NCBI GenBank assembly: GCA_016934035.1
Contig: JAFGTP010000012.1
Coordinates: forward strand, 11,879-75,878
Length of the DNA: 64,000 nucleotides
Direction of reading: 5' to 3'
DNA from: Fidelibacterota bacterium
GTDB taxonomy: Bacteria; Fidelibacterota; UBA2242; JAFGTP01
Made by a program: the position numbers and the translations under genes. Below, in pieces: positions 1-41,707 of the stretch. Under the pieces are notes generated by a model. It was not told the DNA's origin. It did not search any database and was given only the letters and a program-made list of their open reading frames with translations. The number at the start of each line of letters is the position of its first letter. Positions within the stretch are counted from its first letter, which is position 1.

Positions 1-910
1 CGCAGTCTGCCCCGGTATCACCACCTCCGATGACGACTACAGTTTTATCTTTTGCAGATATCCGGTCTGCTTTGTTTATTTTTTCACCGGCGTTGGTCCT
101 GTTTTGTTGTGTCAGGTAGTCCAGGGCCTGGTGAATTCCTTGCAGATCTCTTCCGGGGATATTCAGTTCCCGGGCTGTTCTGGCTCCGGTGGCAATCAAA
201 ACAGCATCATAACTTTTCAATAGATAATTGAAAGAAATATCCACTCCGATTTCGACGCCTGTTTCAAATTTGACACCTTCCTTTTCCATTTGCTGAATCC
301 TTCGGTCGATTTTAGTTTTATCCAGTTTATAATCCGGAATACCATAGCGCAGCAATCCACCGATTTTGCTGGCTTGTTCAAAGACGATGACAAGGTGGCC
401 GGCCCGTGCTAATTGTTGGGCTGCTGCCAGACCGGAGGGGCCGGAACCGATGATGGCCACTTTCCGTCCGGTTTTTGTTGCACAAGCCTGGGGCGTGATA
501 TAACCGGAATCCCAACCGTGTTCGACAATTTGCAGTTCAATCTGACGAAAGGACACCGCTTCATCATCAAGGGTAAGGGTACAGGCCTCCTCGCAGGGGG
601 CAGGACAGATCCGGCCGGTGAATTCCGGAAAATTATGGGTTGAATGCAAAATAGCCAGGGCTTCTTTCCAGAGCCCGCGAAAAACCTTGTCATTGATATC
701 AGGTATTCGATTGGCCAGCGGACAGCCAAAATCATGACAGAATGGAACACCACAATTCATACAGCGTGCAGCCTGTATGTTTAATTGTTCTTCTGTCAAA
801 GGTTTTTCAAATTCTTCAAAATTTTTCAAACGTTCTTCAACATTTAATTTTTCCGGATATTGTCGTTTGTAGGTCAAAAATCCGGTCCTTTTATCCAAAT
901 TAACCATCAT
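1..910 (-). CDS. gltD: Glutamate synthase small subunit (NADPH-dependent, GltD type); 3' end lies beyond the window edge
   Basis: Absent from the ORF track because it runs off the window. My translation of the minus strand from ATG 910/907 gives MMVNLDKRTGFLTYKRQYPEKL...CMNCGVPFC...CPAPCEEAC...KVAIIGSGPSGLAAAQQL...VVVIGGGDTGADC. These are the two Cys clusters and both GxGxxG dinucleotide folds typical of GltD. The start overlaps the gltB stop (900-902). Confidence 0.85.
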   Translation of the reverse strand, partial: MMVNLDKRTGFLTYKRQYPEKLNVEERLKNFEEFEKPLTEEQLNIQAARCMNCGVPFCHDFGCPLANRIPDINDKVFRGLWKEALAILHSTHNFPEFTGRICPAPCEEACTLTLDDEAVSFRQIELQIVEHGWDSGYITPQACATKTGRKVAIIGSGPSGLAAAQQLARAGHLVIVFEQASKIGGLLRYGIPDYKLDKTKIDRRIQQMEKEGVKFETGVEIGVDISFNYLLKSYDAVLIATGARTARELNIPGRDLQGIHQALDYLTQQNRTNAGEKINKADRISAKDKTVVVIGGGDTGADC

Positions 911-14493: not shown

Positions 14494-14621
14494 GACAATA
14501 CAGCGATAAATTTACATGAGAACTCATTCTACTGACATAAAAATACAAATTACAATAAAGTCTGGTCTGTTTTAGATGCAGGCATTTTTTATTGTCACAA
14601 TCTAAACTCAAGGAGGTCAAT

Positions 14622-16642: not shown

Positions 16643-16723
16643 ATGAAGATCGAATCAAACGAAAATATTTTTTTAACCTTAAGACGTAAGTTAATTTCTA
16701 ATTTAGGAGGTATTGTATTATGA
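16643..16723 (+). CDS. Candidate 26-codon upstream ORF (MKIESNENIFLTLRRKLISNLGGIVL), stop overlapping the giant-gene start (ATGA)
   Basis: AAGGAGG at 16633-16639, 3 nt before the ATG. The TGA stop at 16721-16723 overlaps ATG 16720-16722. It falls below the ORF-track size cut-off. Confidence 0.25.
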   Translation: MKIESNENIFLTLRRKLISNLGGIVL

Positions 16724-19700: not shown

Positions 19701-22700
19701 AAGCAAAGTCAATGATTTTGCTAATGGAAAAGCCGATGGTCCTCTGACTGTTTCCGTAACCGGAACAGATCTTTCTGTACCGAATGTAAACAATGGTTCT
19801 GCTACTCTGGTATCAGTTGTTGTTGATAATTTGGTTCCTGTAGTTGATGAATTCACTGTTAATGAAAAACCAATGTCCGTTGCTGAAATTTCAGCCGGCA
19901 ATGCAGTGTTTGAATTGACAGTATCCGACGCCGGATCCGGTATCGATGCGATTTTCGCCTATATCGAACTGGATTACGATGACGGTCAGACAGCCGAAGA
20001 TTCAGTGCTTTTTGAAGTAACCGGACTCGGTGGCCTGGATGAATATACTATCACCAACACCATTGATGTTTCTACCTGGGCAAAAGATACATTCCAGATT
20101 TACCTGGAAGTAACTGACAAATATGGCAGAACATTAGAAGACAACACTCATAAATTTTCAATTCTTGAAAACAATACACTTCCGATTCCTGTCATTGCTG
20201 CTATTGATGAACATGACCAGGAAAATGAAGATTGTTCTGTAACTCTGTATGCCTTCACAGGCCTCTGCCTGCCAAACAACTACCAGAAAGAACCTGATCA
20301 CCTGCGTTTTGAATACAAAAACGGTAACGGTGTTTGGATTGAATTCGGTAACGTTGATTTTGATGCTTCTACAGCCGGTCCTAACGGAAAATTCCGTGTA
20401 TGGCCGATTGAATTCAATTATGATTCAGAAGATGGCGGATACTATGATGAAGAAGTACGCGCTGTAGCTGTTTCCGATGCTTTTGAAGACGATATGGGCG
20501 AAACACCCTATCCGTTCTTAGAAGTTGCCGGTCCTGCATTAGTACCTCATACAGTTTACGACAACAACAGAAAAGCCATGAACGATGCTGATCAGAAACT
20601 CTATTCTGACAATGCTGTCGAATCTCCGACAAACGTTGTATTGGTTCTGACAGAATCCAACGAAAGTGGTCCTCAGGGCAACACCATCAATCATTTCCAA
20701 CTGGTATCTACTGAACTCATCAATGGTATGTACAGAGGAATGTTAGATGTTGAACCCAATTCAGTTCTTGCAGCTGCTCCCTCAGCCGGAACTGTAACTG
20801 TTTGGTCTTTCAGCTCTTACAACATCAATCAGCCGACTTTCACCTACACACTGAATGCCGGTGTCATGGATGTGACCAAATTGTATGATGCTCATGACCA
20901 GGTTGCTGTTTCTTACTGTGGCGCAATGACTGTTGAAGTTGATGCTTCAGCTATCAGCTCCGATGAACTGGTTTATTTTGAACCTTTCAGAAACAAAACC
21001 AGAAATGGTGTTCATATTCACACAACACTTGCGGATGAAATTGATGTTCCTTTTACCATGATTCACAATACAGACATCAGCGGCATGACACTGCCCGCTC
21101 TGAAAGTATGGCGCTGGGGTGAAAATGCTGACGGTATCATGACATGGTTGAATGAAGTTGAAATTGATACAGTACTGGATGACACTGTTTACGCCACGAG
21201 CGTTTCTGCTCAGGGCACAGGCTCTTTCATCGGTACTTTCAAAAACGACGCTATCTATGCTATTTCAGTATACGATGCCTACGTTCCTCCGACACCTTAC
21301 AGTGGTCCGGTTGCTAATTTCGCGCTGCTTGATTACAATGGCGCCGTTAACGGCCTCGATGATGATCATACCGGTTATGCTCCTCATAGTGTAATCTTTG
21401 GTATCTGCGGCAACGGAACTGACTGCGCTGGCGACAATATCTATTATACTTTAGCAAGTGGTCAGGGTGCCGGTGCTGCCAAAGATCATGAAATTACTTT
21501 CATTTTCGATGGCGAACATCAGATCACCTTCATGGCTGACGAATGTTGTAAAGATGTTGCATGGGAAGATAGCTATACCGGTCTGGTAGACAGTACCTAT
21601 GGCAATGCAATGTTTACTTACATGACTCCCGGCAGCTATGACGTTACCATGATCATCAATGATACAAAAGGTCACGGTGCAGACACATTGACAATTGAAG
21701 ATTTCATCATTGTTCATGACAAAGCCCTTGCTATTGACCTTGTAACCATGTTGCCTTCTTACTCCAATGCCGAAGGAAAAACTTATACAAGCAAAACTCC
21801 TTCCTTTGAAGTACAGGTTGTCTATCCGCAATCTGAAGAAAGCGAACTGAAAGCTCACGCTTTCCTGAATGGTCATCATGTACTGTTCCAGGATGCAACC
21901 AAAGAAGCCTTTGATTGGGTTGACTTTGCAAATCTTGAAGCTACACTGACCATTGAAAATGAAAGCGGCGAAGCGCTGAACAGATTCCTGAAAGAAGACG
22001 AAGCTAACGAAATTTACTTCGTAGTCTATGACGAAGCTGCCGGCCTGTCCGTCACTTCTGAAACTCTGACCTTCTGGCTGGATATGACAACTCCGTTGGT
22101 CGCATGCTATGATGAAGACGAAGACTGGATCCTCGGTACTCACGGCTCCAACTCTCATGATGTTTGGGTATTTGCCGAAGTCAAAGATCCTGAATCACTC
22201 ATCAGACTGACCAATTGTTCAATGACTATCGGTCAGAAAAATGATACCAATGACATCGTTACTTATGTTGGCGAAGCCTTCGATATCATCGAAGAATATG
22301 CTGATGGTTTTAAATTGAGAAAAGCCATCAATTTTGCTGACTTCAACCATGCAATCTGGGAAGATGAGACATTCTCCAATGATATGACCATCTCCTTTAC
22401 TTTTGCTAACAGATTAGGTATGACCACAACTGCAGAATATGACTTCTCTTTTGACTTACTTGATCCGATTGCCACTGTTGACGATGATGCATGGCCAATG
22501 GTACCGACCGATTCAATTCCTTATGACAACGACGGTGATTCACTTGCCAACGAAGATCCGATTGATGGTATCAACAACGACGGCGATTGGCACGATGTCA
22601 ACCTGAATGGAAGACGTGATTACTACTTCCAGACATGGTGTGAAGTTGTTTATGATTGCTGCGGTTATGTTGTAGATACAATCTGCCACAAAGAAGTAAT

Positions 22701-23364
22701 GCTTGAAGAAGAATATATTGATGAAGATCCGATTGACTGGGAATACACCTACTATCAGTATGAAGTAGATTGCAACAGCGGTCTGAGTCTGCATCTCTAT
22801 GCCTACGATCCAGAAGAATGTCGTGGCTCTTGCCAGGAACAGGAATACGGATCAGGCAATATCTGGTCAGCTGCTTCCGGTATTGACCATGAATCCTTCA
22901 AACTTTACCTGGACGGTGAATTATTAGACGCAACAATGGACGAAAATGGCGCAGTTGTTGGTGGCCAGGACAATATTCCTCACGGACACCATCAGATTAT
23001 GCTTTCTGTTTCTGACCATGCAGGTAGATCTGCTAATCCTTTAAGATTCAGAATCAAAGCTAACCATGACGTTGCGATTGTTGACGAACCTATCGCTCCT
23101 GAAAAGTTTGAACTGGGTGACAACTATCCGAACCCATTTAACCCAACAACAAACATCAAATTGTCTATTGCAAAACAGACTGATGTTACTCTGACTGTTT
23201 ATGACCTCATGGGTAAAAAAGTTAGAGAAATGAGCTGGACTAATATGGAAACCGGATACCATACAGTAAACTTCGACGCTCAAGGCTTGGCAACTGGTGT
23301 CTATATTTACACCTTGAAAGCCGGAAACTTCGTAGATACTAAAAAGATGATTCTTCTTAAGTAA
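16720..23364 (+). CDS. Giant (2214 aa) acidic secreted surface protein with T9SS C-terminal sorting domain; candidate S-layer/major surface protein
   Basis: AGGAGG RBS; signal peptide MKKRFLISLMVVMAIFLFTSNAFAQ; long Thr/Val/Asp/Gly-rich sequence with no recognisable catalytic motif; C-terminal CTD. Its codon usage differs from that of its neighbours. Confidence 0.85.
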   Translation: MKKRFLISLMVVMAIFLFTSNAFAQHTIKISGRAEMDGIQANQTSLSYTVEARINLGASYSWLPVTGAGLNWDWEDDVETDSFSVEIDSNMIDGADSIRITLRPLTGVSATPSSLTSAMGYSVGWGGLSFDSTAATTDQDSVFQVATTGGNPFEFFSLPEVATDSLGVLPDMNYTPTRLVLACHDSVGSTVLGRGLRIDISIANDAATYGASQITELRISARDFTTKAAIGNDTLVVPKNAANDSLFISDDIVGGGTTWDAFLDSLAANGATRVDFSVAMISVNGTTMATIATTNGVWIDREGPAAPTYDDIVIRNAGGTVVDFGLTPLMEGQVYTIEVTSTDAISSLSEASIVFNYHGAANVLGLPAAGSQATLDMDDAVISGAGHVITFTFTPDDGIGQTPFWYAMQLNMEFIDINGNVTTAMNDNVTHWTLLNRNVFVTGVEISDYTKDPDDPDTLEWGNVYRIVGNDFAVEHMGATINFIALRDGLDEEDGVFVTTPGSNWFKLNGDVLSACLMAGASDTTFAPGWQYYIMGMNSMNGNNYIPWGDVFVSNYAYDGVDSLGWAGVRDLAGNLAGMIDSIFVHDSRYPELTIISFEGEDVDTVNSWIIADTVSGDNIHEHTVYINVDAVKDTNGLAKVQIWYRKHEEDPACYPDKCEWILLTTVNTDTVPWQFDVDLSKLNFEARRYQFAAIGIDDRDVIGNYFGPNRQPIEPQADLYIERGEAAPTGTIAAVVTPFEFGGTNKVHWTVADDFFVKTASVTCAATGQNTALAVAGKASDAADLTVTGLTTAHIGTNLTYVLTVQDYFGTVRTFNVVVPVVNEVVDVVIDSLNNGVPMVGWPWPGDAFDDLEDEDLPVHIHGDSVNVFFTVDDANTPVQLWTKVGVAGTWAKLGTAVAAGGYYHNWNVNALTDADTIYIGGTYSASGSDKIVAGNVLKVVVDHYGFAAGDVSCNLTAGQYVTNTTDITVSTTLNDLANPYTLSGSMGSANWGSKVNDFANGKADGPLTVSVTGTDLSVPNVNNGSATLVSVVVDNLVPVVDEFTVNEKPMSVAEISAGNAVFELTVSDAGSGIDAIFAYIELDYDDGQTAEDSVLFEVTGLGGLDEYTITNTIDVSTWAKDTFQIYLEVTDKYGRTLEDNTHKFSILENNTLPIPVIAAIDEHDQENEDCSVTLYAFTGLCLPNNYQKEPDHLRFEYKNGNGVWIEFGNVDFDASTAGPNGKFRVWPIEFNYDSEDGGYYDEEVRAVAVSDAFEDDMGETPYPFLEVAGPALVPHTVYDNNRKAMNDADQKLYSDNAVESPTNVVLVLTESNESGPQGNTINHFQLVSTELINGMYRGMLDVEPNSVLAAAPSAGTVTVWSFSSYNINQPTFTYTLNAGVMDVTKLYDAHDQVAVSYCGAMTVEVDASAISSDELVYFEPFRNKTRNGVHIHTTLADEIDVPFTMIHNTDISGMTLPALKVWRWGENADGIMTWLNEVEIDTVLDDTVYATSVSAQGTGSFIGTFKNDAIYAISVYDAYVPPTPYSGPVANFALLDYNGAVNGLDDDHTGYAPHSVIFGICGNGTDCAGDNIYYTLASGQGAGAAKDHEITFIFDGEHQITFMADECCKDVAWEDSYTGLVDSTYGNAMFTYMTPGSYDVTMIINDTKGHGADTLTIEDFIIVHDKALAIDLVTMLPSYSNAEGKTYTSKTPSFEVQVVYPQSEESELKAHAFLNGHHVLFQDATKEAFDWVDFANLEATLTIENESGEALNRFLKEDEANEIYFVVYDEAAGLSVTSETLTFWLDMTTPLVACYDEDEDWILGTHGSNSHDVWVFAEVKDPESLIRLTNCSMTIGQKNDTNDIVTYVGEAFDIIEEYADGFKLRKAINFADFNHAIWEDETFSNDMTISFTFANRLGMTTTAEYDFSFDLLDPIATVDDDAWPMVPTDSIPYDNDGDSLANEDPIDGINNDGDWHDVNLNGRRDYYFQTWCEVVYDCCGYVVDTICHKEVMLEEEYIDEDPIDWEYTYYQYEVDCNSGLSLHLYAYDPEECRGSCQEQEYGSGNIWSAASGIDHESFKLYLDGELLDATMDENGAVVGGQDNIPHGHHQIMLSVSDHAGRSANPLRFRIKANHDVAIVDEPIAPEKFELGDNYPNPFNPTTNIKLSIAKQTDVTLTVYDLMGKKVREMSWTNMETGYHTVNFDAQGLATGVYIYTLKAGNFVDTKKMILLK
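22525..22857 (+). other. Asp-rich calcium-binding-like (TSP3-like DxDxDG) plus Cys-rich module inside the giant protein
   Basis: DNDGDSLANEDPIDGINNDGDWHDVNLNGRRD is followed by 8 Cys within ~90 aa (WCEVVYDCCGYVVDTICH...VDCNSG...ECRGSCQ). Confidence 0.4.
23098..23361 (+). other. T9SS type-A C-terminal sorting domain (CTD)
   Basis: PEKFELGDNYPNPFNPTTNIKLSI...VTLTVYDLMGKKV...GYHTVNFDAQGLATGVYIYTLKAGNFVDTKKMILLK. Confidence 0.85.
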
Positions 23365-23393
23365 TATTTTAAGAATAAAAATACCATCTTTCG

Positions 23394-23427
23394 AAAGGGG
23401 CTCGCTTAGCGGGTCCCTTTTGTTTTT
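23394..23427 (+). terminator. Rho-independent terminator of the giant gene
   Basis: 12-bp stem AAAGGGGCTCGC / GCGGGTCCCTTT (two G-U pairs) followed by TGTTTTT. Confidence 0.7.
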
Positions 23428-23793
23428 CATTTCATAATTAGTGCAGACAATATTTATAATTAATTATTCTTTAATAACACTTCCATAAACATCTTTTATC
23501 AAACAGGATATTATTGTTTATCCAATCATATATTGAATAAAATGATAATAAAACATTGTGAAGGTCTCTGTCAGTAATTCAATATGTGGATTTTTCATAA
23601 AGGTTTTTTCTCTAAACCAATAATCCGGTAATGATCAATTGTTCTAATGTAAAATTTTTAATAAAAATGTAAGAAAATATTCATAACAATTACCATTTTT
23701 AAAATTTTATGTTTATAATTATAAATTGCAGGAACCTTGAAATTCATGTAATAAATAGATACTTTTACAACACTTAAACATTTAGGGGGTAAT

Positions 23794-26700
23794 ATGAACA
23801 AGAAGTTAATGACTTTCATTTTATTTTGTCTGGTACTAGGCACCATCCTGTCTGCTTATGATAGTGCGGACAATTACAAACCGGCCAACTATGTACCGGC
23901 AGTAATTCAACATGAACCTATTGGACCGCAATATGCACCCATGTTGGTCGAACCACTTTCTGTACAAATTAACAGCATCAATATTCAAAAATGGCCTTTT
24001 GTTTATTTAAATGTCAATGTGGATACCAATGGAGCCGGAATAAATAGTCTTGATAAGAACAATTTTGAGGTTTATGAAGATGGTATCTTACAATCGGATT
24101 TGTTTGATGTACTCCCTCCCGCTTCCGGAGAAGGAAACAGGCTGGCAGATTTTATCTTCGTCCTGGATGTGTCCGGAAGTATGGGCGAAGAAATTGAAGC
24201 TGTCCGGCAAAATATGAGTGCTTTTCTGGATGCTCTTGCGAATTCCGGTATTAATTATAATGTCGGATTTGTTGTTTTTGCGGACCCGCATTATGTCTAC
24301 AATGATGGCTTTCTCTATTCAGATAAAAACCAAATTCAAAGTGTTATTGACAATATGGAACTGGGAGAGCATGATTTAGGATTGGGTGGTGATATTCCTG
24401 AAGACCAATTGGACGCCCTGGTGTCCGCTTCAGCCATGAATTTTCGACCTGGTGCGCAAAGAGTAGCCATTATGATTACTGATGCGCCGGCGCATACTTT
24501 TGCTGATGTCAATGGGAAATGGACCAATCAAACGGTTGATAGTTGTATTGAAGAGTTAATGGCACAATCCATAACCGTATATCCGGTTTTTGCAACAAGG
24601 GCGATCAATGGTATTCTGCAGGTTAATGTTGATAAACAGATCGAGCAATATATACCCATTGCACAGGCTACACAAACCGGATTATATTTCGATGTATGGG
24701 ATCCTTTTGATGAAATATTAAATACAATTTATGAAGTCATTGCCAATACATACCTGGTCAGATATTACTCAAATAATAACAGAACCTGTGATTATGACCG
24801 GTTTGTTGATGTCATTGTTGATTACCGGTTAGAACAGAACCACGATACGATTTCCTATACCATCGGAGCTGTTCCAATGATTGAAAGGACCCAGGCTACA
24901 CTGCAACTGCATAATAGTTCAAGACCCGAAAATGTCAGTTTTAATATTGATGTTACCATTACCGATGATGTGGCCCCCTTTACCCAATCAGCAGAACTGC
25001 TCTACAAAACATCTACCGGTACTTCTTTTAAAACAATGGCCTTTACTTATATTTCCGATAATCTTTGGAGGGCCACTGTACCGGCAGCGGATGTTGATTT
25101 TCCGGGGTTTGATTATTATATCACTGCAACGGATGGTCAATTTACCAGTACTTTGCCATCCATGGAACCCTATAAAAATCCTTTCCAATTAGCTGTCGGC
25201 ACCAATGAATTGCCGGTTGTGGATCACACACCTTTGGAATCTTATTCATATTTAAACACAGCCATTGCCATTTCGGCCAATGTGACTGATGCGACGGATA
25301 ATGTAGACAGGGTTGAACTTTATTATAAAAAATATGGACAGTTGCTTTATGATATGACAGAAATGACCAAATCCGGTGGAAATACCTACCTTTCAGAAAT
25401 TCCGTCCAATATTGTCACCACGGACGGATTTGAATATTTTATCAAAGCTGCAGATAACCATAATGTTGCCCGATATGTGGGCGATTATGATGCGCCGATT
25501 TTCGTCAGATGTGCTCTCACTCCTCCCGGGCATTTTACTGCCGAGTTGATTGATTCAACTGATGGTTTAGTTGAGCTGAAATGGCGTAAAGAAATTAATA
25601 ATGGCGGATTTTATGAAGATTTTGGCGACACGCTGATACCGGAATGGAAAATTGTCACCGGACAATGGCATGTAGCAGACGGCAATTTTAACACTTCCAA
25701 TTCAACGCATCAGCGCAATTCAGTATACTACAATGACTATTTTGAAAACTTCGTGCTGGAAGCCAGAATGAAAAGGTCTGGTGGTTCTCCTTATGGCATT
25801 GGTCTTTATTTTAATGGTGATCCGACAGAAGTGTCCGCCAGCGGTAAATGGGCCGATGGTTATGCTTTTACTTACTGTACAGCAGGAAACTGGGACCTCA
25901 TTGTTTATGAAAATGGTTACTCCAAAGCTATTCAGCCATTGGTTTGCAGTTCAGAAATTTTACAGGGTGATAATCAGTGGAACATATTAAAAGTAGTCTA
26001 TGCCTATGGATACATTGATGTCTATATTAATCATAAACTGCAGGGCAGTTATTTTGATGAGACCCATAAACGGGGCAGAATCGGCTTACATCTGCACGAT
26101 GATCAGTTAGCAGGTACCGCAGCCTTTGATTATGTTACTTTAACCCCTTTGCCGGACCAGTATTCCTTTGGAACCCTGCAATTGGCGGATCACCAATTCA
26201 GCATGATTTATGATCGTCAAAACCAGGAAATGACTACAGAAGAACTACCCAGTTTAAAACTGGCTCGCTGCAGCTATCCGACCTATGGATTGAATTTTCA
26301 ATATCTGGTCAAAAACAATGCTTATCTTACCGAAGAAGAACCGACATTTAAGTTCTTCAAGGTATACAGAGATAATTATTGTATTGCCGAATCCCACAAA
26401 TCCTATTATTATGATAATCTTGAAGTCAGTGGAACTTACAAATACAAAGTGACCTCTCTCTATGAAGAGGGTGAATCCAGACCTGCCGGCCCTGCTAAAA
26501 TCATTTGGGGTGAAGAAAACATTGTGGGCAGCACCTTCTCCGGAAATTTACTGTATCTGAATTCAAATGAACCTCTGGTGGGCGATACTTTAGAACTGAC
26601 AGGAGATCTGGATAATATTTCCATTACGGACGCCAATGGATTTTATCAATTCAAAGGGCTCTCCAGCCATACCATTGTAATGCCCAAGAAGACAGGTGAA

Positions 26701-27693
26701 ATTGGTAGTATCAATGGTCTGGATCTTCTCAGTCTCAAAAACCACCTGATGGGTACAAAAGTCCTGACCAACAATTCCAAGAAAGCGGCTGATTGTAATC
26801 TGGATTATAATATCAATGGCAATGATTTATTGCTGCTACAAAATTATTTATTGGGAAAAACTGTATCCGCACCCCTGGGTACCTGGGAATTCAATCCTGA
26901 AAAATATGAATATGAAATCATTGTCGGTGATATGCTCAATAAAAATTTCACGGCCTTTATCTATGGCGATGTCAATCTGAGCTGGAATGAAAGTGAAGCC
27001 CTGGCAAAAGAAATTTTTGCTCATCAGACCAATCTGGAATTTGATGACATGTATTTTTCTGACGGAGAATATCTCTATTTACCCCTTACCATTGACAATA
27101 GTCTGAAAATGGCTGTGATTGATTGGATGATTGAATACAATCCGGATGAATTGGAGTTTGTGGGCATTACAGGTCCGGTAAACTTTCAATCCAATATTGT
27201 TGATAAGGGCGTAAAAATCTCCTGGCTGTATGATGGCAGGGAAATCACGATTAACGAGAACCAAGCCCTGGCTGAATTGAAATTCATCATCAAGTCCTCA
27301 GCAAATACCACCACTGTCACATTTTCCGGCAATAGTCTGACGGCTGACAAAAATGAAAATGTTTATCATATCAATTATGCCTCCGGAAAATTAAATCTTA
27401 ACAAACAACTGAAAGAGGTTATTATTCCTGAAAAAACAGAGTTGTTTGCTAATTATCCGAATCCCTTTAATCCGTCTACCATGATCCGGTTTGGCCTGGC
27501 TGAAGATGCAAAAGTACATTTAGCAATCTATGATGTTCGCGGAAGATTGGTTGAGACTTTAGTAAATGAAAATAAAAATGCAGGTTATTATACGATCCAT
27601 TGGGACGCTTCAAAAATGGCTTCCGGTGTTTATATCTATAAATTGCAGACCAATAATTATAATGACATTAAAAAATGTATTTTTCTGAAATAA
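23794..27693 (+). CDS. 1299-aa secreted multidomain protein: vWA - repeated beta-sandwich modules - LamG/DUF1080-like - Fn3-like - dockerin-like - cohesin-like - T9SS CTD
   Basis: AGGGGG RBS, signal peptide, and the domain motifs listed in the sub-features below. Confidence 0.85.
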   Translation: MNKKLMTFILFCLVLGTILSAYDSADNYKPANYVPAVIQHEPIGPQYAPMLVEPLSVQINSINIQKWPFVYLNVNVDTNGAGINSLDKNNFEVYEDGILQSDLFDVLPPASGEGNRLADFIFVLDVSGSMGEEIEAVRQNMSAFLDALANSGINYNVGFVVFADPHYVYNDGFLYSDKNQIQSVIDNMELGEHDLGLGGDIPEDQLDALVSASAMNFRPGAQRVAIMITDAPAHTFADVNGKWTNQTVDSCIEELMAQSITVYPVFATRAINGILQVNVDKQIEQYIPIAQATQTGLYFDVWDPFDEILNTIYEVIANTYLVRYYSNNNRTCDYDRFVDVIVDYRLEQNHDTISYTIGAVPMIERTQATLQLHNSSRPENVSFNIDVTITDDVAPFTQSAELLYKTSTGTSFKTMAFTYISDNLWRATVPAADVDFPGFDYYITATDGQFTSTLPSMEPYKNPFQLAVGTNELPVVDHTPLESYSYLNTAIAISANVTDATDNVDRVELYYKKYGQLLYDMTEMTKSGGNTYLSEIPSNIVTTDGFEYFIKAADNHNVARYVGDYDAPIFVRCALTPPGHFTAELIDSTDGLVELKWRKEINNGGFYEDFGDTLIPEWKIVTGQWHVADGNFNTSNSTHQRNSVYYNDYFENFVLEARMKRSGGSPYGIGLYFNGDPTEVSASGKWADGYAFTYCTAGNWDLIVYENGYSKAIQPLVCSSEILQGDNQWNILKVVYAYGYIDVYINHKLQGSYFDETHKRGRIGLHLHDDQLAGTAAFDYVTLTPLPDQYSFGTLQLADHQFSMIYDRQNQEMTTEELPSLKLARCSYPTYGLNFQYLVKNNAYLTEEEPTFKFFKVYRDNYCIAESHKSYYYDNLEVSGTYKYKVTSLYEEGESRPAGPAKIIWGEENIVGSTFSGNLLYLNSNEPLVGDTLELTGDLDNISITDANGFYQFKGLSSHTIVMPKKTGEIGSINGLDLLSLKNHLMGTKVLTNNSKKAADCNLDYNINGNDLLLLQNYLLGKTVSAPLGTWEFNPEKYEYEIIVGDMLNKNFTAFIYGDVNLSWNESEALAKEIFAHQTNLEFDDMYFSDGEYLYLPLTIDNSLKMAVIDWMIEYNPDELEFVGITGPVNFQSNIVDKGVKISWLYDGREITINENQALAELKFIIKSSANTTTVTFSGNSLTADKNENVYHINYASGKLNLNKQLKEVIIPEKTELFANYPNPFNPSTMIRFGLAEDAKVHLAIYDVRGRLVETLVNENKNAGYYTIHWDASKMASGVYIYKLQTNNYNDIKKCIFLK
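24136..24690 (+). other. von Willebrand factor type A domain with MIDAS motif
   Basis: DFIFVLDVSGSMGEEIEAVRQNMSAFLDAL (DxSxS at 24166-24180), followed by ...AIMITDAPAH... Confidence 0.8.
25603..26145 (+). other. Concanavalin-A-like lectin (LamG / DUF1080-like) domain
   Basis: EWKIVTGQWHVADGNF...YFENFVLEARMKR...GIGLYFNG...GYAFTY...IDVYINHKLQG...GRIGLH. Confidence 0.55.
26707..26862 (+). other. Dockerin-like duplicated segment (first Ca loop degenerate, second intact)
   Basis: SINGLDLLSLKNHLMG ... DCNLDYNINGNDLLLLQNYLLG. The second segment fits D-x-N-x-D-x-x-I-N-x-x-D followed by a helix ending LLG. Confidence 0.55.
27070..27402 (+). other. Cohesin-like module
   Basis: YLYLPLTIDNSLKMAVIDWMIEYNPDELEFVGITGP...GVKISWLYDG...ALAELKFIIKSSANTTTVTFSG...ASGKLNL. 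It follows the same pattern as the three modules of the next gene. Confidence 0.55.
27421..27690 (+). other. T9SS type-A CTD
   Basis: IIPEKTELFANYPNPFNPSTMIRFGL...VHLAIYDVRGRLV...GYYTIHWDASKMASGVYIYKLQTNNYNDIKKCIFLK. Confidence 0.85.
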
Positions 27694-27705
27694 ATAGGTG
27701 CTATT

Positions 27706-29268
27706 ATGAAAATCTATAAAATTATTTTAGCATTTATTATCTCGATAACTTTCGGGTTTGGTGTAACACTGGACCTGAGAGTCAATGAAATAACCGGGCT
27801 CGTTGGCAATGAGGTGGAACTTGCAATCGTTACAGAAAATGGATTCTCGAACGTTGCCATGATGGAACTTGAATTGCTTTTTGACGACACAAAAATGACT
27901 TTTTTAAATAGTGAAAGCAGTCTGTTGTCCAGTGCCAATATCAATGCCAGCAACGGTGTTTTGAAAATTGTCTGGATCTATACCAGCAACATGATGGCGC
28001 TGGCTTCAGGCGATACACTGGCCAAATTGAGTTTTGATGTTTTGCCGTCAAACAATCAAACCGGCGATTATCTGACCCTGAGTTTCACAGATAAATGTAT
28101 GGCCAGTGATAAAGATGAAAACCTTTTTGACATGACTTTGGTTAATGGCGGTATCCATGTGACGGAAAATACGATATTTTTCTCGATACCCAGAGTCGTC
28201 AAATATGACAATACCAGTGTATCAGTACCGGTTATTGTGAATTATGGTTTTGATAATGTCGCCATGGTTGAATTGCATATTGCTTTTGATCAGACCAAAT
28301 TGACCTATAACAGTATCACAAGTTCTTACATCAATGCCGAAAATGTCAATTTGATCGGCAATGTGCTGACTATTCTCTGGGTCTACGAAGGGACGTCGAT
28401 GAATATTGCTGATAACCAAGATTTACTGAGCATCAATTTTACTGCGAATATGCCTGAAGGTTCAGAATCCTTTGCGTCGGTCAGGTTTGTGGGTGAAAAT
28501 AATGTCAGCGATGCCGATGCCTATCCATTTATGCTCTTATTTAAGGATGGCGGGGTGTTAAATTTTGATACCAGTTCGATGCTCATCACGATACCCTCTG
28601 TTACTGGCTATGATAACAAACCGGTTACGGTTCCCATGGTCGTGGATTACAGTGTGACCAATGTCGGGTCAATTCAACTATATGTTAATTATGATGATGA
28701 AAATATGGATTATTCGGGAATGGAAAGTGCCTACTTGTCCAGTTCCAATGTAACCCGGAATGGAAATACGATTACGATCAGTTGGTCAAGCGGAACAGGA
28801 ATTAATTTTTCTGACAATGACACATTGGTAAAATTCAATTTCAATGTGGACCTGACCAGTGACGTTGTTAATTTCGTTCCGGTAACTTTTACTGGTGAAA
28901 ACAGTGTCAGTGATGCCAGCGGAAATCCTTTTCAGCTGTATCTGGATGATGGTGGTGTCAACATTGAAGAGTGGGTCAGTGGATTAGATCAGGATATTAT
29001 TATACGGGAATTCAAATTATACCAGAATTATCCAAATCCTTTTAATCCAACCACAACGATAAGTTTTGATCTGGCCGAATCTGCCACAATCAACCTCAGT
29101 ATTTACAACCTTAGCGGAGAATTGCTGCAAACCCTGGTCAATTCCAGGCTGGATAATGGGCATCATCGCATTAAATGGCAGGCCGGGAATTTTTCATCAG
29201 GAATTTATATCTACAGATTACAGTCCGACGGTTTCCATGAAACCCAAAAATGTATTTTGATGAAATAA
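27706..29268 (+). CDS. 520-aa secreted protein with three tandem cohesin-like modules and a T9SS CTD (candidate surface scaffold)
   Basis: It starts 12 nt after the previous stop with an AGGTG RBS. It has a signal peptide, three mutually alignable ~130-aa modules, and the CTD YQNYPNPFNPTTTISFDL...SGIYIYRLQSDGFHETQKCILMK. Confidence 0.85.
   Translation: MKIYKIILAFIISITFGFGVTLDLRVNEITGLVGNEVELAIVTENGFSNVAMMELELLFDDTKMTFLNSESSLLSSANINASNGVLKIVWIYTSNMMALASGDTLAKLSFDVLPSNNQTGDYLTLSFTDKCMASDKDENLFDMTLVNGGIHVTENTIFFSIPRVVKYDNTSVSVPVIVNYGFDNVAMVELHIAFDQTKLTYNSITSSYINAENVNLIGNVLTILWVYEGTSMNIADNQDLLSINFTANMPEGSESFASVRFVGENNVSDADAYPFMLLFKDGGVLNFDTSSMLITIPSVTGYDNKPVTVPMVVDYSVTNVGSIQLYVNYDDENMDYSGMESAYLSSSNVTRNGNTITISWSSGTGINFSDNDTLVKFNFNVDLTSDVVNFVPVTFTGENSVSDASGNPFQLYLDDGGVNIEEWVSGLDQDIIIREFKLYQNYPNPFNPTTTISFDLAESATINLSIYNLSGELLQTLVNSRLDNGHHRIKWQAGNFSSGIYIYRLQSDGFHETQKCILMK
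27763..28968 (+). repeat. Three tandem ~130-aa cohesin-like protein modules (approx. 27763-28160, 28171-28564, 28574-28968)
   Basis: The three modules align with each other:
- GFSNVAMMELELLFDDTKMTFLNSES...NGVLKIVWIY...LAKLSFDV
- GFDNVAMVELHIAFDQTKLTYNSITS...GNVLTILWVY...LLSINFTA
- VTNVGSIQLYVNYDDENMDYSGMES...GNTITISWSS...LVKFNFNV. Confidence 0.6.
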
Positions 29269-29808: not shown

Positions 29809-32388
29809 TTACCGTGTCCGGCAAATCCTGAAACCGATATAATCATAGGAAAATTCGGGAGAATTGTTGTTTCGGTTGGTTGTACGGGCATAAAAGGGTC
29901 CATAATTATAAGACCCACCCCGATTGACCTTTCTGCCATTGGATGCGGCTTTGGAGGGGCCGGTGGGGAAATAGGGATTGCCGGTAATCTGACCTTCAAT
30001 ATACCAGTCCCAGCACCATTCAAAGACATTACCGCTCATATCAAAGATGCCCAGTAAATTGGCTTTCAGCTGTCCAACCGGTTGAATAATATCGGGGCTG
30101 TTTTTGGCTGTATAGGCATATTCATCGATTTCATCCCAAAAATTGGTACCGCTGTATCTTTGGTCATTTCGGCCACCACTGCGGGCGGCGTATTCCCATT
30201 CGGCTTCTGTCGGCAGACGATATCCTTTGGCTTCCCAGTTTGCTACGACGGAGTCAGGAAAAACCGTATAAACCGGCAGCAAACCGTGCTGAATGCTGAG
30301 CCAGTTGCAATATTCAACAGCGCCGTACCAGGTGACTTCCATGACAGGACTCAGAATACCCGCAATCTTGGAGCGCTGGACAAAATAGAATTCGATGTTG
30401 TCCCATTCAATAGCGCAGTCCATGTCATTCATATCCAGGAGATAATTGCCGTTTAATTTACCCTGGCCATCGGCACCGGAGTTGTTAAGAAATTCGATAA
30501 ATTGCTGATGAGTGATTTCGTAAGTGCCCATAAAAAAATCCGGCAGATTAACATTACGCAAGGTCTGTTCATCCTTGTCACCCTCATGCCAAATGTCACC
30601 CATGACAAAGGAACCGCCTTCGACATAGCGCAATCCGGCGGGGGGTAACAAAACCTCTACTATATTGGTTTTGTTACTTTGGTTTTTGGAAGTAAAAGCA
30701 AAAACCCGGTATTGGTAGCGGAAATCATTTTGCAGACCGGTTTCAGTATATTCATGAATGTCAGGACCGACGGAGCCGATTTCGACAAAAGCTGCGCCGT
30801 CATCACTTCTTTCTATTTTAAAACCGGATTCAAAATGACAGCTGTCTTCCCAGTGCAGGGTGAGAGAATATTCATCCAGTTCTTCCAGGATCAGATTATA
30901 GGGGGCATTGATCTTGATTGTTATGGCTTTGGTTTCATTGGAATATTCGCTGCTGTTAAATTGGGTTGAGGCCTTGACGCGATACTGATAGCTGGTGGCA
31001 TAGGAAACGGTGTTATCGGTGAAAGTTGTATTGTTGGCATTGACAGTGGCAATTTCGCTGTAGCCGGAGCCGGAATTTCTCTCGATTACATATTGGGATT
31101 CAAAAGGACAATTATCTTCCCAGGTGAGAGAGATGTGCTCATCATCGATAAATTGGGACTGAAGGTTGGTTGGGGCTTCCATAAAACTGAAAACGGAGGT
31201 GTTTAAACTGCCGGATTTTTTTTCGCCGAAGTAGGCATAGACGATATAAAAATTGGTTTGTCCGTAGACGGGGTTTTCATCGGTCCAGGTAGTGACGTTG
31301 CCGATGACAGAACCATAGTTTTCCACCCATTCTCCGTTGCCCACTTTGCGATCAACTTTAAAACCTTCCTCATCGTCACTGTTGTCGGTCCAGTTCAGGA
31401 CAACGGCCTTATCGGAAACCAGTTGTCCGGTGAGGTCGGAAGGGGCCGGGAAAAGGGTCGAAATAGCGACTTCTTTGCTGGAAGAAGTCTGGTCTTTATT
31501 ATAGGCTGTGATACGATAGCGGAAATTGGCAGCCGGCAGGGCATTTTCATCAGTATAGGTAGTAATATTTTTTCCCACAACAGCATAGCCGGTCTGCCAG
31601 TCATTGCTTTCATATTTGCGGTCTATGGTAAAACCATCTTCCCCCAGGATATTTTCCTTCCAGGTCAATTTGATTCTGGCCAGAGACAGCTGTTCCGCAG
31701 CAAAGTCGGTGGGAGAGGGAAAGAATATGTTTTGTGAAGACTGGATTTGGGCTGAGTTGTGGCTGCTGTAAAAAGCATAGACCCGGTAGAGGTTGGTTTT
31801 ATTCGGGACGGCCATGGTGTCCAGGAAAGAGGTGGCATTTTGACCCAGAGTCTTATAGTTGATTTGCCAGTCTTCAGCGCCGATTTTGCGGTCAATTTTA
31901 AAGCCTTCCTCACCATCGGAATTGTCCTTCCAGGTAAGATTGATCTGGTTCAGGGTCAGTTGTTCCAGCTGCAGGTCCGAAGGTTTAGGAAAAACAGGTG
32001 TAATGGTGATCGTTTTGGAACTGGAACTCTCTTCATGAGCAAAGGTGGTGATGCGGTATTCGTGGACAAGTGTAGTGTCCGGAGTCAGTCCGTCATCAGT
32101 GATACTGTATTCAGCAGCATCAGTCTTATCAAGGGTTCTGAAGTTTTCTGTCCAGGCGTTGTCAGCGGTTCTTTTGTCGATTCTGAAACCATCGACATTT
32201 TCTTCCATTTGGTGCCAGGTCAGTTTTGCAGTAAAGACATTTAACTGTTCCAGTGACAAACCATCTGGCGACCATTGGTCCGGTGAGAGCTGGTTTTTTG
32301 CGTCATGAGGGTTCGTCCATAATCGATCTTCGCAGTGATAAAGGACAATTAAGATTAGTAGGAGTGATAAATATTGGATTGTTTTCAT
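29809..32388 (-). CDS. Probable lipoprotein with six Fn3-like repeats and a C-terminal FGE-sulfatase (SUMF1) fold domain lacking the catalytic cysteines
   Basis: The start is moved to ATG 32388 (MKTIQYLSLLLILIVLYHC), 13 nt after the PEGA gene stop. There are six ~90-aa repeats (L.L.W.DNS..EEGFKIDRK...Y.Y.V.A). The FGE fold shows YVEGGSFVMGD...GYRLPTEAEWEYAARSG...GNVFEWCWDW...RGGSYNYGPFYARTTNRN...IGFRICR. Confidence 0.85.
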   Translation of the reverse strand: MKTIQYLSLLLILIVLYHCEDRLWTNPHDAKNQLSPDQWSPDGLSLEQLNVFTAKLTWHQMEENVDGFRIDKRTADNAWTENFRTLDKTDAAEYSITDDGLTPDTTLVHEYRITTFAHEESSSSKTITITPVFPKPSDLQLEQLTLNQINLTWKDNSDGEEGFKIDRKIGAEDWQINYKTLGQNATSFLDTMAVPNKTNLYRVYAFYSSHNSAQIQSSQNIFFPSPTDFAAEQLSLARIKLTWKENILGEDGFTIDRKYESNDWQTGYAVVGKNITTYTDENALPAANFRYRITAYNKDQTSSSKEVAISTLFPAPSDLTGQLVSDKAVVLNWTDNSDDEEGFKVDRKVGNGEWVENYGSVIGNVTTWTDENPVYGQTNFYIVYAYFGEKKSGSLNTSVFSFMEAPTNLQSQFIDDEHISLTWEDNCPFESQYVIERNSGSGYSEIATVNANNTTFTDNTVSYATSYQYRVKASTQFNSSEYSNETKAITIKINAPYNLILEELDEYSLTLHWEDSCHFESGFKIERSDDGAAFVEIGSVGPDIHEYTETGLQNDFRYQYRVFAFTSKNQSNKTNIVEVLLPPAGLRYVEGGSFVMGDIWHEGDKDEQTLRNVNLPDFFMGTYEITHQQFIEFLNNSGADGQGKLNGNYLLDMNDMDCAIEWDNIEFYFVQRSKIAGILSPVMEVTWYGAVEYCNWLSIQHGLLPVYTVFPDSVVANWEAKGYRLPTEAEWEYAARSGGRNDQRYSGTNFWDEIDEYAYTAKNSPDIIQPVGQLKANLLGIFDMSGNVFEWCWDWYIEGQITGNPYFPTGPSKAASNGRKVNRGGSYNYGPFYARTTNRNNNSPEFSYDYIGFRICRTR

Positions 32389-32401
32389 ATTTATGCCTCT
32401 G

Positions 32402-34063
32402 TCATTTAAAATTGTAAGAAAGTTGAATTTGATGTCCGGTGCAAGGATCGTAGCCCACATTGAGTTGGGTCTTCAGTTGCCTGATTTTCATGTGGCAGTA
32501 TATGGATGGCATGAGAAGGGCAACTCCCGCACCGATGGCAGCCGGATATAACTGGTCTTTCATTTCGATGGAATCATGTAGGGAAGTGGCGTTGGAACCG
32601 GCCTTCTTGTAATCTTCATAATCCTGGTCGGAGGAAAATTTCAGCACAGCGCCGGTGATGGTCGATGCGATAGCTGTGTAAAAGCTCAGGTTGCGAACGA
32701 TTTTCAGACGATGGATACGTTTGTTGATTTCCATCATATTGGGATCAAGAACAATGTTCAGGGATTTTTTTTCGCCGGGTAGCAGCGCTACGGTCAGGCT
32801 TTTTTCGAAAAAATTCCGTTTGGTAAAGGTGATATCATAGGTGCCGGTTTCCAGTTCGCCTTTCCAGGGGGTTTTGTAACTGGTTTCGCTGTTGATGGAA
32901 AATTTTGCATTATCAGGATTGCTGCTGATTTCCAGCATGCCCAGCTGCGAAATGGATTTGGTGTAGGTATAAGTTGCGCCAGCGGAAATATTGATGACCT
33001 CTTCTGTGGTTGCAAAATTGTTTTTGGTTATTTTTATAGTGTGAAACCCTTTGCTGACATTTTCAATCAGCATGGGCGTTTTTCCGACCATATTTCCATC
33101 CAGATAGATATTGGAACCTTCGGGCTGGGATTGAACGTCAATTCTGCCGTAAAGGGGCATTAGGTCCAGGAAAATTGATTGCTGTTCGGGTGAATTGAGG
33201 TTCACCAGTATTTCACCTGAATAACCGGATGTCTTCATTTCAATTTTATAATTTCCGAAAACCAGATTGTCGATCACAGCCGGAGAATTTTTCGGCAGTT
33301 TGTTGCCGTTAATATAAATTTCAGCGTCGGTAGGATTGGATTCAATTTTAATGCTGCCCATGGTTGTGTTTTGGATTTGGGAAGTGATGGTCGGCTGCTG
33401 TGGCAGATTTGCTACTGGTTGCTGGGGATAGGAAACCACAGGCTGCTGAACCGGCAAAGCGCCTTCTTTTTCCAGCGTAAATTCAAAGAAATGATTAGCA
33501 GGGCTGACGGTGATATTTTTGCGCAGGGTCTTGTATCCCATTTTCTGAATTTCCAACAGATGTTGTCCGGAAGTGACGGTAAATTGTTCATTAATGCCAA
33601 TATAGTTTCCGTCCAGATAATATTTGGTCAGCGGCGGTGTGGTCTTGACGGTAATCATGACCTGGGTGGGTGAAGTGGATACCGGCGCCCGGTGACCATC
33701 GGAAATGGAAATTTCCCACATTTCTTTTGGGTTCAGTTGGATACCATAATCAGCAAAATTAATTGGGAAGGGCTCATAGTTTTGATGATAGATTTCAATA
33801 GCCTGTTCCTGGGGCAAAACAAAGACGATATCTTCATTCTCCAGGTCATCAATCTGAACAATTCCCAGATAGGAATCATACTGAAGGCCTTCGATTGTGG
33901 AGATGATTCGCAGGGCCGAGCAATATCTGCCTTCGGAATCCTGAACATCAACACTGACGTATTTGATTTTTTTGGCTTCAATGTGAAGGTTTAGTTGCTG
34001 TGCAAACAAATTCGACAGCAGCAGTGCCAGCAAAGTAATCAATAAAGATAATTTTTTTTCCAT
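32402..34063 (-). CDS. PEGA-domain protein with signal peptide and C-terminal membrane anchor
   Basis: Repeated PEGA-type modules are present, e.g. IDVQSQPEGSNIYLDGNMVGKTPMLIENVSKGFHTIKI and IESNPTDAEIYINGNKL...GNYKIEM. There is a hydrophobic segment near the C-terminus. AAGGA RBS. Confidence 0.8.
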   Translation of the reverse strand: MEKKLSLLITLLALLLSNLFAQQLNLHIEAKKIKYVSVDVQDSEGRYCSALRIISTIEGLQYDSYLGIVQIDDLENEDIVFVLPQEQAIEIYHQNYEPFPINFADYGIQLNPKEMWEISISDGHRAPVSTSPTQVMITVKTTPPLTKYYLDGNYIGINEQFTVTSGQHLLEIQKMGYKTLRKNITVSPANHFFEFTLEKEGALPVQQPVVSYPQQPVANLPQQPTITSQIQNTTMGSIKIESNPTDAEIYINGNKLPKNSPAVIDNLVFGNYKIEMKTSGYSGEILVNLNSPEQQSIFLDLMPLYGRIDVQSQPEGSNIYLDGNMVGKTPMLIENVSKGFHTIKITKNNFATTEEVINISAGATYTYTKSISQLGMLEISSNPDNAKFSINSETSYKTPWKGELETGTYDITFTKRNFFEKSLTVALLPGEKKSLNIVLDPNMMEINKRIHRLKIVRNLSFYTAIASTITGAVLKFSSDQDYEDYKKAGSNATSLHDSIEMKDQLYPAAIGAGVALLMPSIYCHMKIRQLKTQLNVGYDPCTGHQIQLSYNFK

Positions 34064-37802: not shown

Positions 37803-37923
37803 TTTTTTTCGATCTCGTGATTTAGTCAACAAGGTTACACTTTTAAAATACAAAAGTTTTCCAATTTATTCTAAAAATTCCTCCCTTCCATCAAAGACTT
37901 GAGGGAAAGATGAAAGACGGGGC

Positions 37924-41278: not shown

Positions 41279-41707
41279 TTTCGCTCCCCTTTTTAATTTA
41301 TTTATTTTTAATGTTTTGTCTGAAAACATGGTGCAATCTAATTCAACTAATTGTTCATATTAAAATTTTAACACAGTAATTCTCTAAAAATCACTATTGT
41401 TGATATATTATAAAACAAATATCAATATATCAATCAAATTTTTAAATATTCCCGACTAGGTTTTTTAGAAAAAATATGAATTTTATTTAAATAAAATTCA
41501 GAGGGCAATAATTGTTTTGAGAAAAGGTTCCTGTCGTTCCGAATTTGATGAAGAATCTCTTCAAGGGAAAGTCAAGATTATTGCTCTTGCGCCGAAAGGA
41601 AAGGAGGACGGTGAAATTTGATTTTGGCCCTAAGGCCCAATGAAATGACAAGCGGGTCTTTTATTGTCCTTCCAATGGGCCCAAATACGGGGTGTATTAT
41701 TTCATTA

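Follow-up and report, generated by a model that had tools for sequence, protein, structure and literature searches.

Two adjacent genes, g1 and g2, lie in a 64-kb stretch of contig JAFGTP010000012.1 (the window, meaning the whole of the DNA analyzed) and encode proteins in which cohesin and dockerin modules are joined to type IX secretion system (T9SS) sorting domains. The reading favored here, which we judge slightly better than an even prospect, is that they form a non-cellulosomal cohesin-dockerin assembly on T9SS cargo, in which Ca2+-dependent contacts would hold surface adhesins and peptidases to one another, with g2 serving as a trivalent platform. Modules of these two kinds are familiar chiefly from machinery that breaks down cellulose, a role that g1 and g2 probably do not share. 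The genes occupy 23794-27693 (g1, + strand, 1299 amino acids, aa) and 27706-29268 (g2, + strand, 520 aa), and both open reading frames (ORFs) were confirmed at these coordinates. Their products are each 100% identical to proteins from a Candidatus Marinimicrobia/Neomarinimicrobiota metagenome-assembled genome (MAG), MBN2279638.1 for g1 and MBN2279639.1 for g2, whose sole NCBI annotation is 'T9SS type A sorting domain-containing protein'. A first-pass annotation, made from the sequence, had proposed the cohesin-dockerin architecture. Because the Cohesin (PF00963), Dockerin_1 (PF00404) and TIGR04183 profiles all matched above their curated cut-offs, and because the predicted folds were those expected of such modules rather than others, it was concluded from profile and model together that these are genuine cohesins, a genuine dockerin and genuine T9SS C-terminal domains (CTDs).

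The scaffoldin-like cargo protein g2 consists, in order, of a signal peptide, three cohesins of a type termed here class A, and a CTD, much as first described. Three parts of it matched PF00963 (E 2.3e-20, 73.7 bits, cut-off 24.1); Pfam, module alignment and custom hidden Markov models (HMMs) placed cohesin 1 at aa 21-156 (27766-28173, +), cohesin 2 at aa 157-291 (28174-28578, +) and cohesin 3 at aa 292-424 (28579-28977, +). The type A CTD, aa 442-517 (29029-29256, +), was recognized by Por_Secre_tail (E 1.6e-10) and TIGR04183 (40.8 bits) and aligns to the solved CTD 8glj_D. With three cohesins, g2 has the composition of a multi-cohesin scaffoldin; Pfam found no carbohydrate-binding module (CBM) in it. 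Cohesins 2 and 3 are 27% identical to cohesin 1, and the fourth cohesin, in g1, is 18% identical to it; by these comparisons the four modules are old duplicates. Both g1 and g2 pair an N-terminal signal peptide, judged by eye from the N-terminal sequence, with a C-terminal CTD, as expected of T9SS type A cargo.

The order in g1 is signal peptide, VWA domain, Ig-like region, ConA-like domain, fn3-like region, beta-sandwich, dockerin, linker, cohesin and CTD. The VWA domain (aa 119-266; 24148-24591, +) matched PF00092 (E 1.1e-9) and carries the DxSxS motif as DVSGS; the earlier description of its metal ion-dependent adhesion site (MIDAS) as intact holds for this motif, but the usual MIDAS Thr position reads 'GGD'. 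The domain first called a LamG-like lectin, at aa 612-771 (25627-26106, +), is a ConA-like/LamG-like beta-sandwich by its match to PF06439 (3keto-disac_hyd, E 2.7e-7, 31.2 bits, cut-off 26.8), a family that we take to belong to the ConA-like superfamily, but Laminin_G_3 reached only E 0.08.

The dockerin of g1 is type I-like and spans aa 966-1025 (26689-26868, +), an assignment to which Pfam, PDB matches and predicted helices all point. Dockerin_1 matched aa 971-1020 (E 1.6e-9, 38.3 bits, cut-off 22.9), beginning at profile position 8, and phmmer matched the module to the solved type I dockerins 8x3a_A (2e-8) and 1ohz_B (6e-5); a profile of the wider family described below matched the same two structures at 2e-16 and 5e-11, respectively. 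One Ca2+-binding loop had been read as intact and one as degenerate, and this was borne out: loop 2 is canonical and complete (D1000, N1002, D1004, N1008, D1011), and loop 1 has positions 6-12 only (G971...N974...D977), with positions 1, 3 and 5 occupied by K966, G968 and I970. Immediately before the dockerin is a five-strand, CarboxypepD_reg-like beta-sandwich (aa 910-965; 26521-26688, +) that is weakly similar, at the profile level, to the X-modules found in X-dockerin dyads. After it comes a structured linker (aa 1026-1063; 26869-26982, +) of three predicted beta-strands that ends in the family-invariant G1058-D-V-N-L-S1063. The dockerin had been placed directly N-terminal to a cohesin; in fact the two are separated by some 50 aa, which are conserved and structured. 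Cohesin 4 itself (aa 1076-1205; 27019-27408, +), of a cassette type termed class B, was identified by PF00963 (aa 1091-1190, E 1.9e-8, 35.1 bits, cut-off 24.1), by structure prediction and by the family profile, in agreement with the earlier report of a fourth such module in the gene 12 nucleotides (nt) upstream of g2. The type A CTD follows at aa 1221-1296 (27454-27681, +; Por_Secre_tail PF18962, E 8e-12; TIGR04183 39.9 bits, cut-off 23).

With g1 aa 963-1209 as the query, 1.84 billion representatives were searched exhaustively with HMMER, and 1017 of them matched at E<1e-3. In 36 of the best 150 matches, dockerin, linker and cohesin form one contiguous stretch that ends 89-125 aa before the C-terminus. 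Furthermore, g1 aa 906-1299 can be aligned end to end with 22 homologues at about 23-38% identity. In this 23-member alignment the twelfth-position Asp (D12) of both dockerin loops, the GDVN that follows the linker, the CTD motif PNPF and residues W1031, P1097 and W1144 are invariant or nearly so, and both dockerin helices and the second Ca2+ loop are strongly conserved. Pfam recognized Por_Secre_tail in 23/23 members, Dockerin_1 in 22/23, CarboxypepD_reg in 12/23 and Cohesin in 8/23. Whether the dockerin is an insertion in the CarboxypepD_reg-like beta-sandwich was probed by deleting it in silico from eight family members: as before, CarboxypepD_reg matches went no further than about position 57 of the 82 in the profile, and a prealbumin-like (SpaA) match crossed the splice in only two of the eight. 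The passengers that precede this tail are mutually unrelated and include VWA/ConA-like, FG-GAP, PKD, TIG, MAM, BACON, HYR and P_proprotein modules and papain-family peptidases (Peptidase_C1). Judged from these alignments, the tail of g1 (beta-sandwich, dockerin, linker, cohesin and CTD) is a conserved, independent C-terminal cassette.

The N-terminal part of g1 has a different distribution. Homologues found with the whole of g1 have in common with it only the N-terminal, VWA-containing 40% of the protein, a module that is widespread in the Fibrobacterota-Chlorobiota-Bacteroidota (FCB) group and is joined to varied C-terminal halves, sometimes with a dockerin and sometimes with a cohesin and CTD. 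Two such homologues, P0143 (863 aa) and P0153 (822 aa), have no CTD and carry a dockerin at the C-terminus. Going by their domain order, in some lineages a dockerin seems to stand in for the CTD at the end of this passenger.

Loci related to g1-g2 were collected by scanning one genome per GTDB species with an alignment of the seven closest cassette sequences, and all fetched loci were then searched with custom HMMs, one each for the CTD, the dockerin unit and the two cohesin types, class A (as in g2) and class B. The scan recovered eight loci (L007-L014), five of them titled Neomarinimicrobiota; the window's own MAG was not among the GTDB representatives recovered. In seven of the eight loci, a class A cohesin, the dockerin unit and a class B cohesin are found in one protein, which amounts to eight proteins (one each in L008, L009, L010, L012, L013 and L014, and two in L011). 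The CTD is also present in these fused proteins, except in L012, which meets the contig end, and in L014, in which the class B cohesin and CTD occur in the next ORF; the gene after a fused cassette gene often bears additional class A cohesins. The cassette protein g1 lacks a fused class A cohesin and represents a split variant: in the window, in the metagenome contig L001 and in L007, the cassette gene is without a class A cohesin and the adjacent gene has three, three and two copies, respectively. The cassette is thus paired with class A cohesins in 10/10 loci (the window, L001 and L007-L014). Because of this fusion/fission (Rosetta-stone) pattern, g1 and g2 were concluded to be functionally linked, and the pattern, comparative in kind, is the strongest evidence that they work together. 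By its module content, g2 is the detached half of a tail that is usually fused in Neomarinimicrobiota relatives.

The local organization points in the same direction. The two genes share strand and frame and are separated by a 12-nt spacer, ATAGGTGCTATT (27694-27705, +), which contains a Shine-Dalgarno-like AGGTG and is conserved as GTAGGTGCTATT in L001. This contig is orthologous to the window in keeping g1, g2 and the 12-nt spacing, at per-module identities of 85% for the dockerin, 63% for cohesin 4 and 70, 62 and 56% for cohesins 1, 2 and 3. Upstream of g1, a hairpin resembling an intrinsic terminator (23392-23422, +; 14-bp stem with eight GC pairs, followed by a T-run) ends a 2214-aa gene and separates it from g1-g2, and a sigma-70-like promoter match, TTACCA-18-TATAAT (23690-23719, +), is a match to consensus only. 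Because a strong terminator precedes g1 and a terminator scan found none between the genes, g1 and g2 probably form a bicistronic, two-gene operon.

Structure prediction supports the identity of the modules and at the same time raises the first alternative. An AlphaFold2 (AF2) model of g1 906-1299, built from the 23-sequence multiple sequence alignment (MSA), had a mean predicted local distance difference test score (pLDDT) of 88.3 and a predicted template modeling score (pTM) of 0.70, and gave the order five-strand beta-sandwich, three helices, three strands, low-confidence connector, beta-rich cohesin, second connector and CTD. The predicted dockerin helices (g1 975-986, 993-999 and 1009-1019; pLDDT >90) make up the three-helix dockerin fold. 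Cohesin 4 (pLDDT 88-91) was matched by Foldseek, with target-normalized template modeling (TM) scores of 0.65-0.74 and a root-mean-square deviation of about 3 Å, to 2vn5_A, 6kgf_C, 5nrm_A, 1ohz_A, 2jh2 and 2xdh. These cohesin matches comprise type I cohesins, the cohesin-like module of Clostridium perfringens (2jh2) and the non-cellulosomal cohesin of Archaeoglobus fulgidus (2xdh); the top match was 2w1n of C. perfringens, and the family profile found its best solved cohesin in 2xdh_A (7.6e-8). The expected nine-stranded jelly roll was recovered for cohesin 4 only, by AF2 and Foldseek, and the fold-based grounds on which the first-pass annotation could have been overturned did not materialize.

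When the CTD was removed (g1 910-1204), the model rose to a pLDDT of 91.1 and a pTM of 0.86, with the larger rigid body making up only about 53% of the construct. Because a pTM this high implies that the orientation of the dockerin unit relative to cohesin 4 is fixed, the two are predicted to pack in cis. It is possible, if unlikely in our estimation, that the cassette is locked in this state, with the dockerin permanently seated on its own class B cohesin as a rigid stalk or folding unit beside the CTD, and with the g2 cohesins binding other dockerins or non-dockerin ligands. The rise in pTM from 0.70 to 0.86 fits such a lock, as does the co-inheritance of dockerin, linker and cohesin as one alignable unit with a short, low-confidence connector, and no solved structure spans the whole cassette (Foldseek query-normalized TM <=0.30; no PDB chain matched both halves by profile). 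However, the packing may involve the beta-sandwich instead of the dockerin binding face, the MSA behind the model is shallow (23 sequences), both dockerin helices are conserved, and a permanent lock leaves unexplained the constant class A cohesin partner, in cis or in the next gene. The predicted packing also bears on the name adaptor, which g1 had been given: it does carry both a dockerin and a cohesin, but these reside in a C-terminal cassette common to many proteins and predicted to fold upon itself.

Positions 1-5 of the first dockerin Ca2+ loop are absent throughout the family. About 85 residues downstream of the truncated loop lies a family-invariant G-D-V-N-x-S/T (GDVNLS at g1 1058-1063; window 26965-26982), of which D-V-N-x-S corresponds to the half-loop of positions 1-5; joined to the retained G-x-[IV]-N-x-x-D, it yields a canonical 12-residue loop in register. 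Grafting GDVNxS in silico extended Dockerin_1 coverage from 8-11..57 to 1-2..57 in 5/5 members, with a gain of 9-12 bits, a result compatible with a first Ca2+ site that may be split or circularly permuted. The degenerate loop can also be taken as a sign that homologues of cohesins and dockerins have been reused here as Ig-like spacers and a Ca2+-stabilized helical insert, with no mutual recognition, and cohesins 1-4, mutually 18-27% identical and without direct phmmer matches to solved cohesins, would suit such reuse. Inert modules of this kind are nonetheless very improbable, given that in different lineages the dockerin strictly co-occurs with cohesins, encoded in its own gene or in an adjacent one, and that its helices and second Ca2+ loop are strongly conserved. 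Non-cellulosomal cohesin and dockerin modules are reportedly widespread and mostly untested, as Peer and colleagues are said to have described in 2009. To our knowledge, every non-cellulosomal pair that has been tested binds, namely those of A. fulgidus, C. perfringens and Ruminococcus bromii.

Several relatives carry more than one cassette gene. The Neomarinimicrobiota MAG CSMAG_1237 has three in tandem in L011 (405-12886) and a fourth on another contig (L012); because of these four copies, the cassette is regarded as a multi-copy tail within single genomes. Of the four, the third L011 gene is without the class A module; the others combine a class A cohesin, the dockerin unit and a class B cohesin. 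Three cassette genes occur in GCA_020628755.1 (L002 and L003), where those of L003 (1-5643) adjoin a gene for a giant SprB-repeat protein and a PorP/SprF gene, a neighborhood that may connect these proteins with the loading of gliding-type T9SS cargo. The gene table for L003 gives a 400-aa cohesin-CTD gene just upstream, and the ORF scan puts this stretch inside a longer cassette-bearing ORF. Elsewhere, L004 has tandem genes encoding leucine-rich repeats, cohesin, dockerin and CTD, L006 (Ignavibacteriales) clusters a three-cohesin-CTD gene with a gene for a 2314-aa dockerin protein and another cohesin-CTD gene, and the cohesin-CTD gene of L005 is solitary. These genomes are more distant from the window, and in L003, L004 and L006 cohesin-CTD and dockerin-CTD genes again stand side by side in independent contexts, which favors the assembly reading.

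Such multiplicity (at least four cassette genes in CSMAG_1237 and three in GCA_020628755.1), the presence of both partner types on every cassette protein and the adhesin-type passengers would also suit self-aggregation or cell-cell aggregation, in which dockerins bind cohesins of the same protein species or of neighboring cells in trans by domain swapping and give rise to head-to-tail polymers, an S-layer-like lattice, or adhesion between cells as flocs and particle-attached biofilm. There is a precedent in Amy4 of Ruminococcus bromii, which bears cohesin and dockerin on one protein and whose dockerin recognizes its own cohesin, leading to autoaggregation (Ze et al., 2015; PMC4611034); this precedent counts for the favored assembly as well. 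Aggregation as a separate explanation appears quite improbable: it is largely a sub-case of the assembly favored here, and the predicted cis packing would compete with swapping in trans.

In the favored assembly on T9SS cargo, g1 and g2 would be exported by Sec and then by the T9SS, and then attached to the outer membrane or released, by analogy with characterized T9SS cargo bearing a type A CTD, which follows this route to either end. Covalent surface anchoring through the CTD had been proposed for both proteins, and both do have CTDs, but the CTD is primarily an export signal, from which anchoring is something that we only infer. The cassette protein g1 would display its adhesion-type modules (VWA and ConA-like), Ca2+-dependent dockerin-cohesin contacts would link proteins non-covalently on the cell surface, and g2 would offer a trivalent docking platform to the dockerin-bearing tails of g1 and its paralogues. 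In this way adhesins and cysteine peptidases would come to form a multivalent coat for attachment to, and proteolysis of, particulate organic matter. The choice of cohesin partner for the dockerin, the Ca2+ dependence, the surface anchoring and the ecological role are all inferred elements of this scheme.

Several observations weigh against it. The window holds four cohesins and one dockerin, in line with the count first reported: a lenient Ca2+-loop motif scan of all six frames of the 64 kb found no second dockerin, and the custom HMMs found no further cohesin or dockerin in the window. The first Ca2+ loop of that dockerin is incomplete, so that it does not present two complete 12-residue loops, and on the model cis packing could leave it occupied intramolecularly and unavailable to g2. 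Of the four cohesins, the structural model covers cohesin 4, only the 8/23 cassette cohesins mentioned above are significant on their own in Pfam Cohesin (E<=0.01), and T9SS core genes were not found in the 64-kb window.

A more elaborate proposal joins the split or permuted Ca2+ loop, a cis clasp of the class B cohesin and a Ca2+-dependent lattice of diverse T9SS cargo (adhesins and papain-like peptidases) on the outer membrane; as a conjunction it is improbable, and we offer it tentatively. On this view the block of beta-sandwich, dockerin, linker and cohesin would be a structural module not described before. Positions 6-12 of the loop would precede helix 1, positions 1-5 would be supplied by GDVNxS from about 85 residues downstream, and class A cohesins, in cis or in the adjacent gene, would enable self-assembly in Marinimicrobia and related FCB bacteria.

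The surroundings of g1-g2 are those of an ordinary chromosome, in which neither a tRNA nor a tmRNA gene was found over the 64 kb; among the genes are those for an OPT transporter, aminopeptidase C, GOGAT, type III glutamine synthetase, CysS, Ddl and ThyX. The window is unusually rich in T9SS cargo, with four CTD proteins besides g1 and g2. The 2214-aa protein encoded at 16720-23364 (+), directly upstream of the terminator that precedes g1, has a CTD, a PKD domain and Asp-rich 'DNDGD...NNDGD' stretches, and no cohesin or dockerin was found in it. The other three cargo proteins (34134-37853, 37976-41329 and 51329-55216, all on the - strand) are likewise without cohesin or dockerin modules; a cadherin-like domain marks one of them, BNR_assoc_N another, and the remaining one combines a beta-helix with a disaggregatase-related domain. 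Convergent with g2 is a gene for an 883-aa protein in which fn3-like repeats are combined with an FGE-sulfatase (formylglycine-generating-enzyme-like) domain at the C-terminus (29809-32460, -), whose start is overlapped by the end of a gene for a 553-aa protein with four PEGA domains (32402-34063, -). Farther away, 14592-15761 (+) encodes a protein with a domain of baeRF family 10 (E 4e-21), of the bacterial archaeo-eukaryotic release-factor-like kind; the surrounding 12-16 kb has a GC content of 0.32-0.36, compared with about 0.42 elsewhere in the window, and by its composition this stretch may have been acquired as an island.

In the ocean and in anoxic environments, the uncultured Marinimicrobia (SAR406) occur in large numbers, and little is known of their interactions with particles. 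If the favored reading is correct, a modular, Ca2+-dependent linkage of adhesins and cysteine peptidases would provide a testable mechanism for particle attachment and extracellular proteolysis, and the cohesin-dockerin paradigm would be extended to diderms whose export and anchoring depend on the T9SS. The paradigm would gain a new architecture too, with a dockerin between two cohesin classes and possibly a split Ca2+ site and cis packing, and orthogonal cohesin-dockerin pairs suited to Gram-negative outer-membrane display would be useful parts for biotechnology. No report of a cohesin-dockerin system in Marinimicrobia and no description of the cassette was found in the literature searched, outside which much subscription literature lies.

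The closest known proposal comes from the genome of Candidatus Stygibacter (Cloacimonadota), for which a CTD-anchored scaffoldin with tandem cohesins and a set of dockerin-bearing enzymes were described from genome data only (Williams et al., 2021; PMC8542988). The first-pass annotation had taken T9SS-anchored scaffolds to be uncharacterized, and this in silico proposal qualifies the claim, which stands for experimental characterization in the literature searched. Both hosts are FCB-group diderms, and the evidence for Stygibacter is likewise purely genomic. However, the two differ in phylum (Cloacimonadota and Marinimicrobia), and the Stygibacter scaffoldin has 3755 aa with CBM2 and CBM3, compared with 520 aa and no CBM in g2. 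Furthermore, the dockerins of Stygibacter tag the C-termini of enzymes (GH18, GH57, S8 and C25), whereas that of g1 lies inside a cassette whose passengers are mainly adhesin modules. By its tandem cohesins and CTD, g2 resembles the Stygibacter scaffoldin-like protein enough to suggest a cellulosome-like complex, in which g2 would serve dockerin-bearing glycoside hydrolases encoded elsewhere in the genome. This is scarcely credible. Because neither a CBM nor a glycoside hydrolase was found (none of the latter among window ORFs of at least 150 aa or among at least 20 cassette or neighboring proteins), the reading was rejected, and the earlier statements that no glycoside hydrolase lies nearby and that this is not a classical cellulosome were upheld. 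The passengers are adhesins and Peptidase_C1, and the dockerins are internal to the cassette rather than C-terminal enzyme tags.

Among Gram-positive systems, the amylosome of R. bromii is similar to g1/g2 in being a non-cellulolytic cohesin-dockerin system with both modules on one protein, but it belongs to a Firmicute, uses sortase or ScaE-like anchoring, carries GH13 amylases as passengers and has no T9SS CTD, fixed cassette or split Ca2+ loop. The C-terminus of CipA from Clostridium thermocellum (CohI9-X-DocII) mirrors the order class A cohesin, beta-sandwich and dockerin of Neomarinimicrobiota tails. In line with this likeness, positions 2-113 of the cassette profile weakly match chains of type II X-dockerin dyads, in which an X-module precedes a dockerin (4u3s_B, 1.1e-4; 4wi0_B, 1.2e-4; 2b59_B, 2.6e-3), Foldseek also lists the CipA-type structures 3kcp_A and 4fl4, and these profile matches hint that the beta-sandwich and dockerin constitute an XDoc-like dyad. 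The similarity of the g1 beta-sandwich to X modules is weak, however, and the CipA dockerin is type II, terminal and bound to SLH-anchored scaffoldins, whereas that of g1 is type I-like and is followed by a cohesin and a T9SS CTD.

Cohesins and dockerins outside plant cell-wall degradation are also found in A. fulgidus (2xdh), in GH84C/NagJ of C. perfringens (2jh2, 2w1n) and in the Chlorochromatium epibiont, as in g1/g2. The A. fulgidus genes AF2375 and AF2376 are presumably adjacent and encode a cohesin plus dockerin and a cohesin, respectively. In the epibiont, a member of the Chlorobiota, Cag_2037/2038 form an adjacent-gene cohesin-dockerin pair, inferred with AlphaFold3 and assigned to the type I secretion system (bioRxiv 10.64898/2026.03.19.712371); like g1/g2, the partners are encoded in adjacent genes of an FCB-group bacterium. 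None of these three systems has T9SS CTDs or a conserved cassette. Measured against such systems, non-cellulosomal cohesin-dockerin pairs are already known and a T9SS-anchored cohesin scaffold has been proposed in silico for Cloacimonadota; what appear to be new, all from computation, are the conserved cohesin-dockerin-cohesin-CTD tail, its split form in the window, the predicted cis packing and the possible split Ca2+ loop. Should the tentative combination of split loop, cis clasp and lattice prove true, g1 and g2 would represent a diderm, T9SS-based counterpart of the principle on which the Gram-positive cellulosome and amylosome are built.

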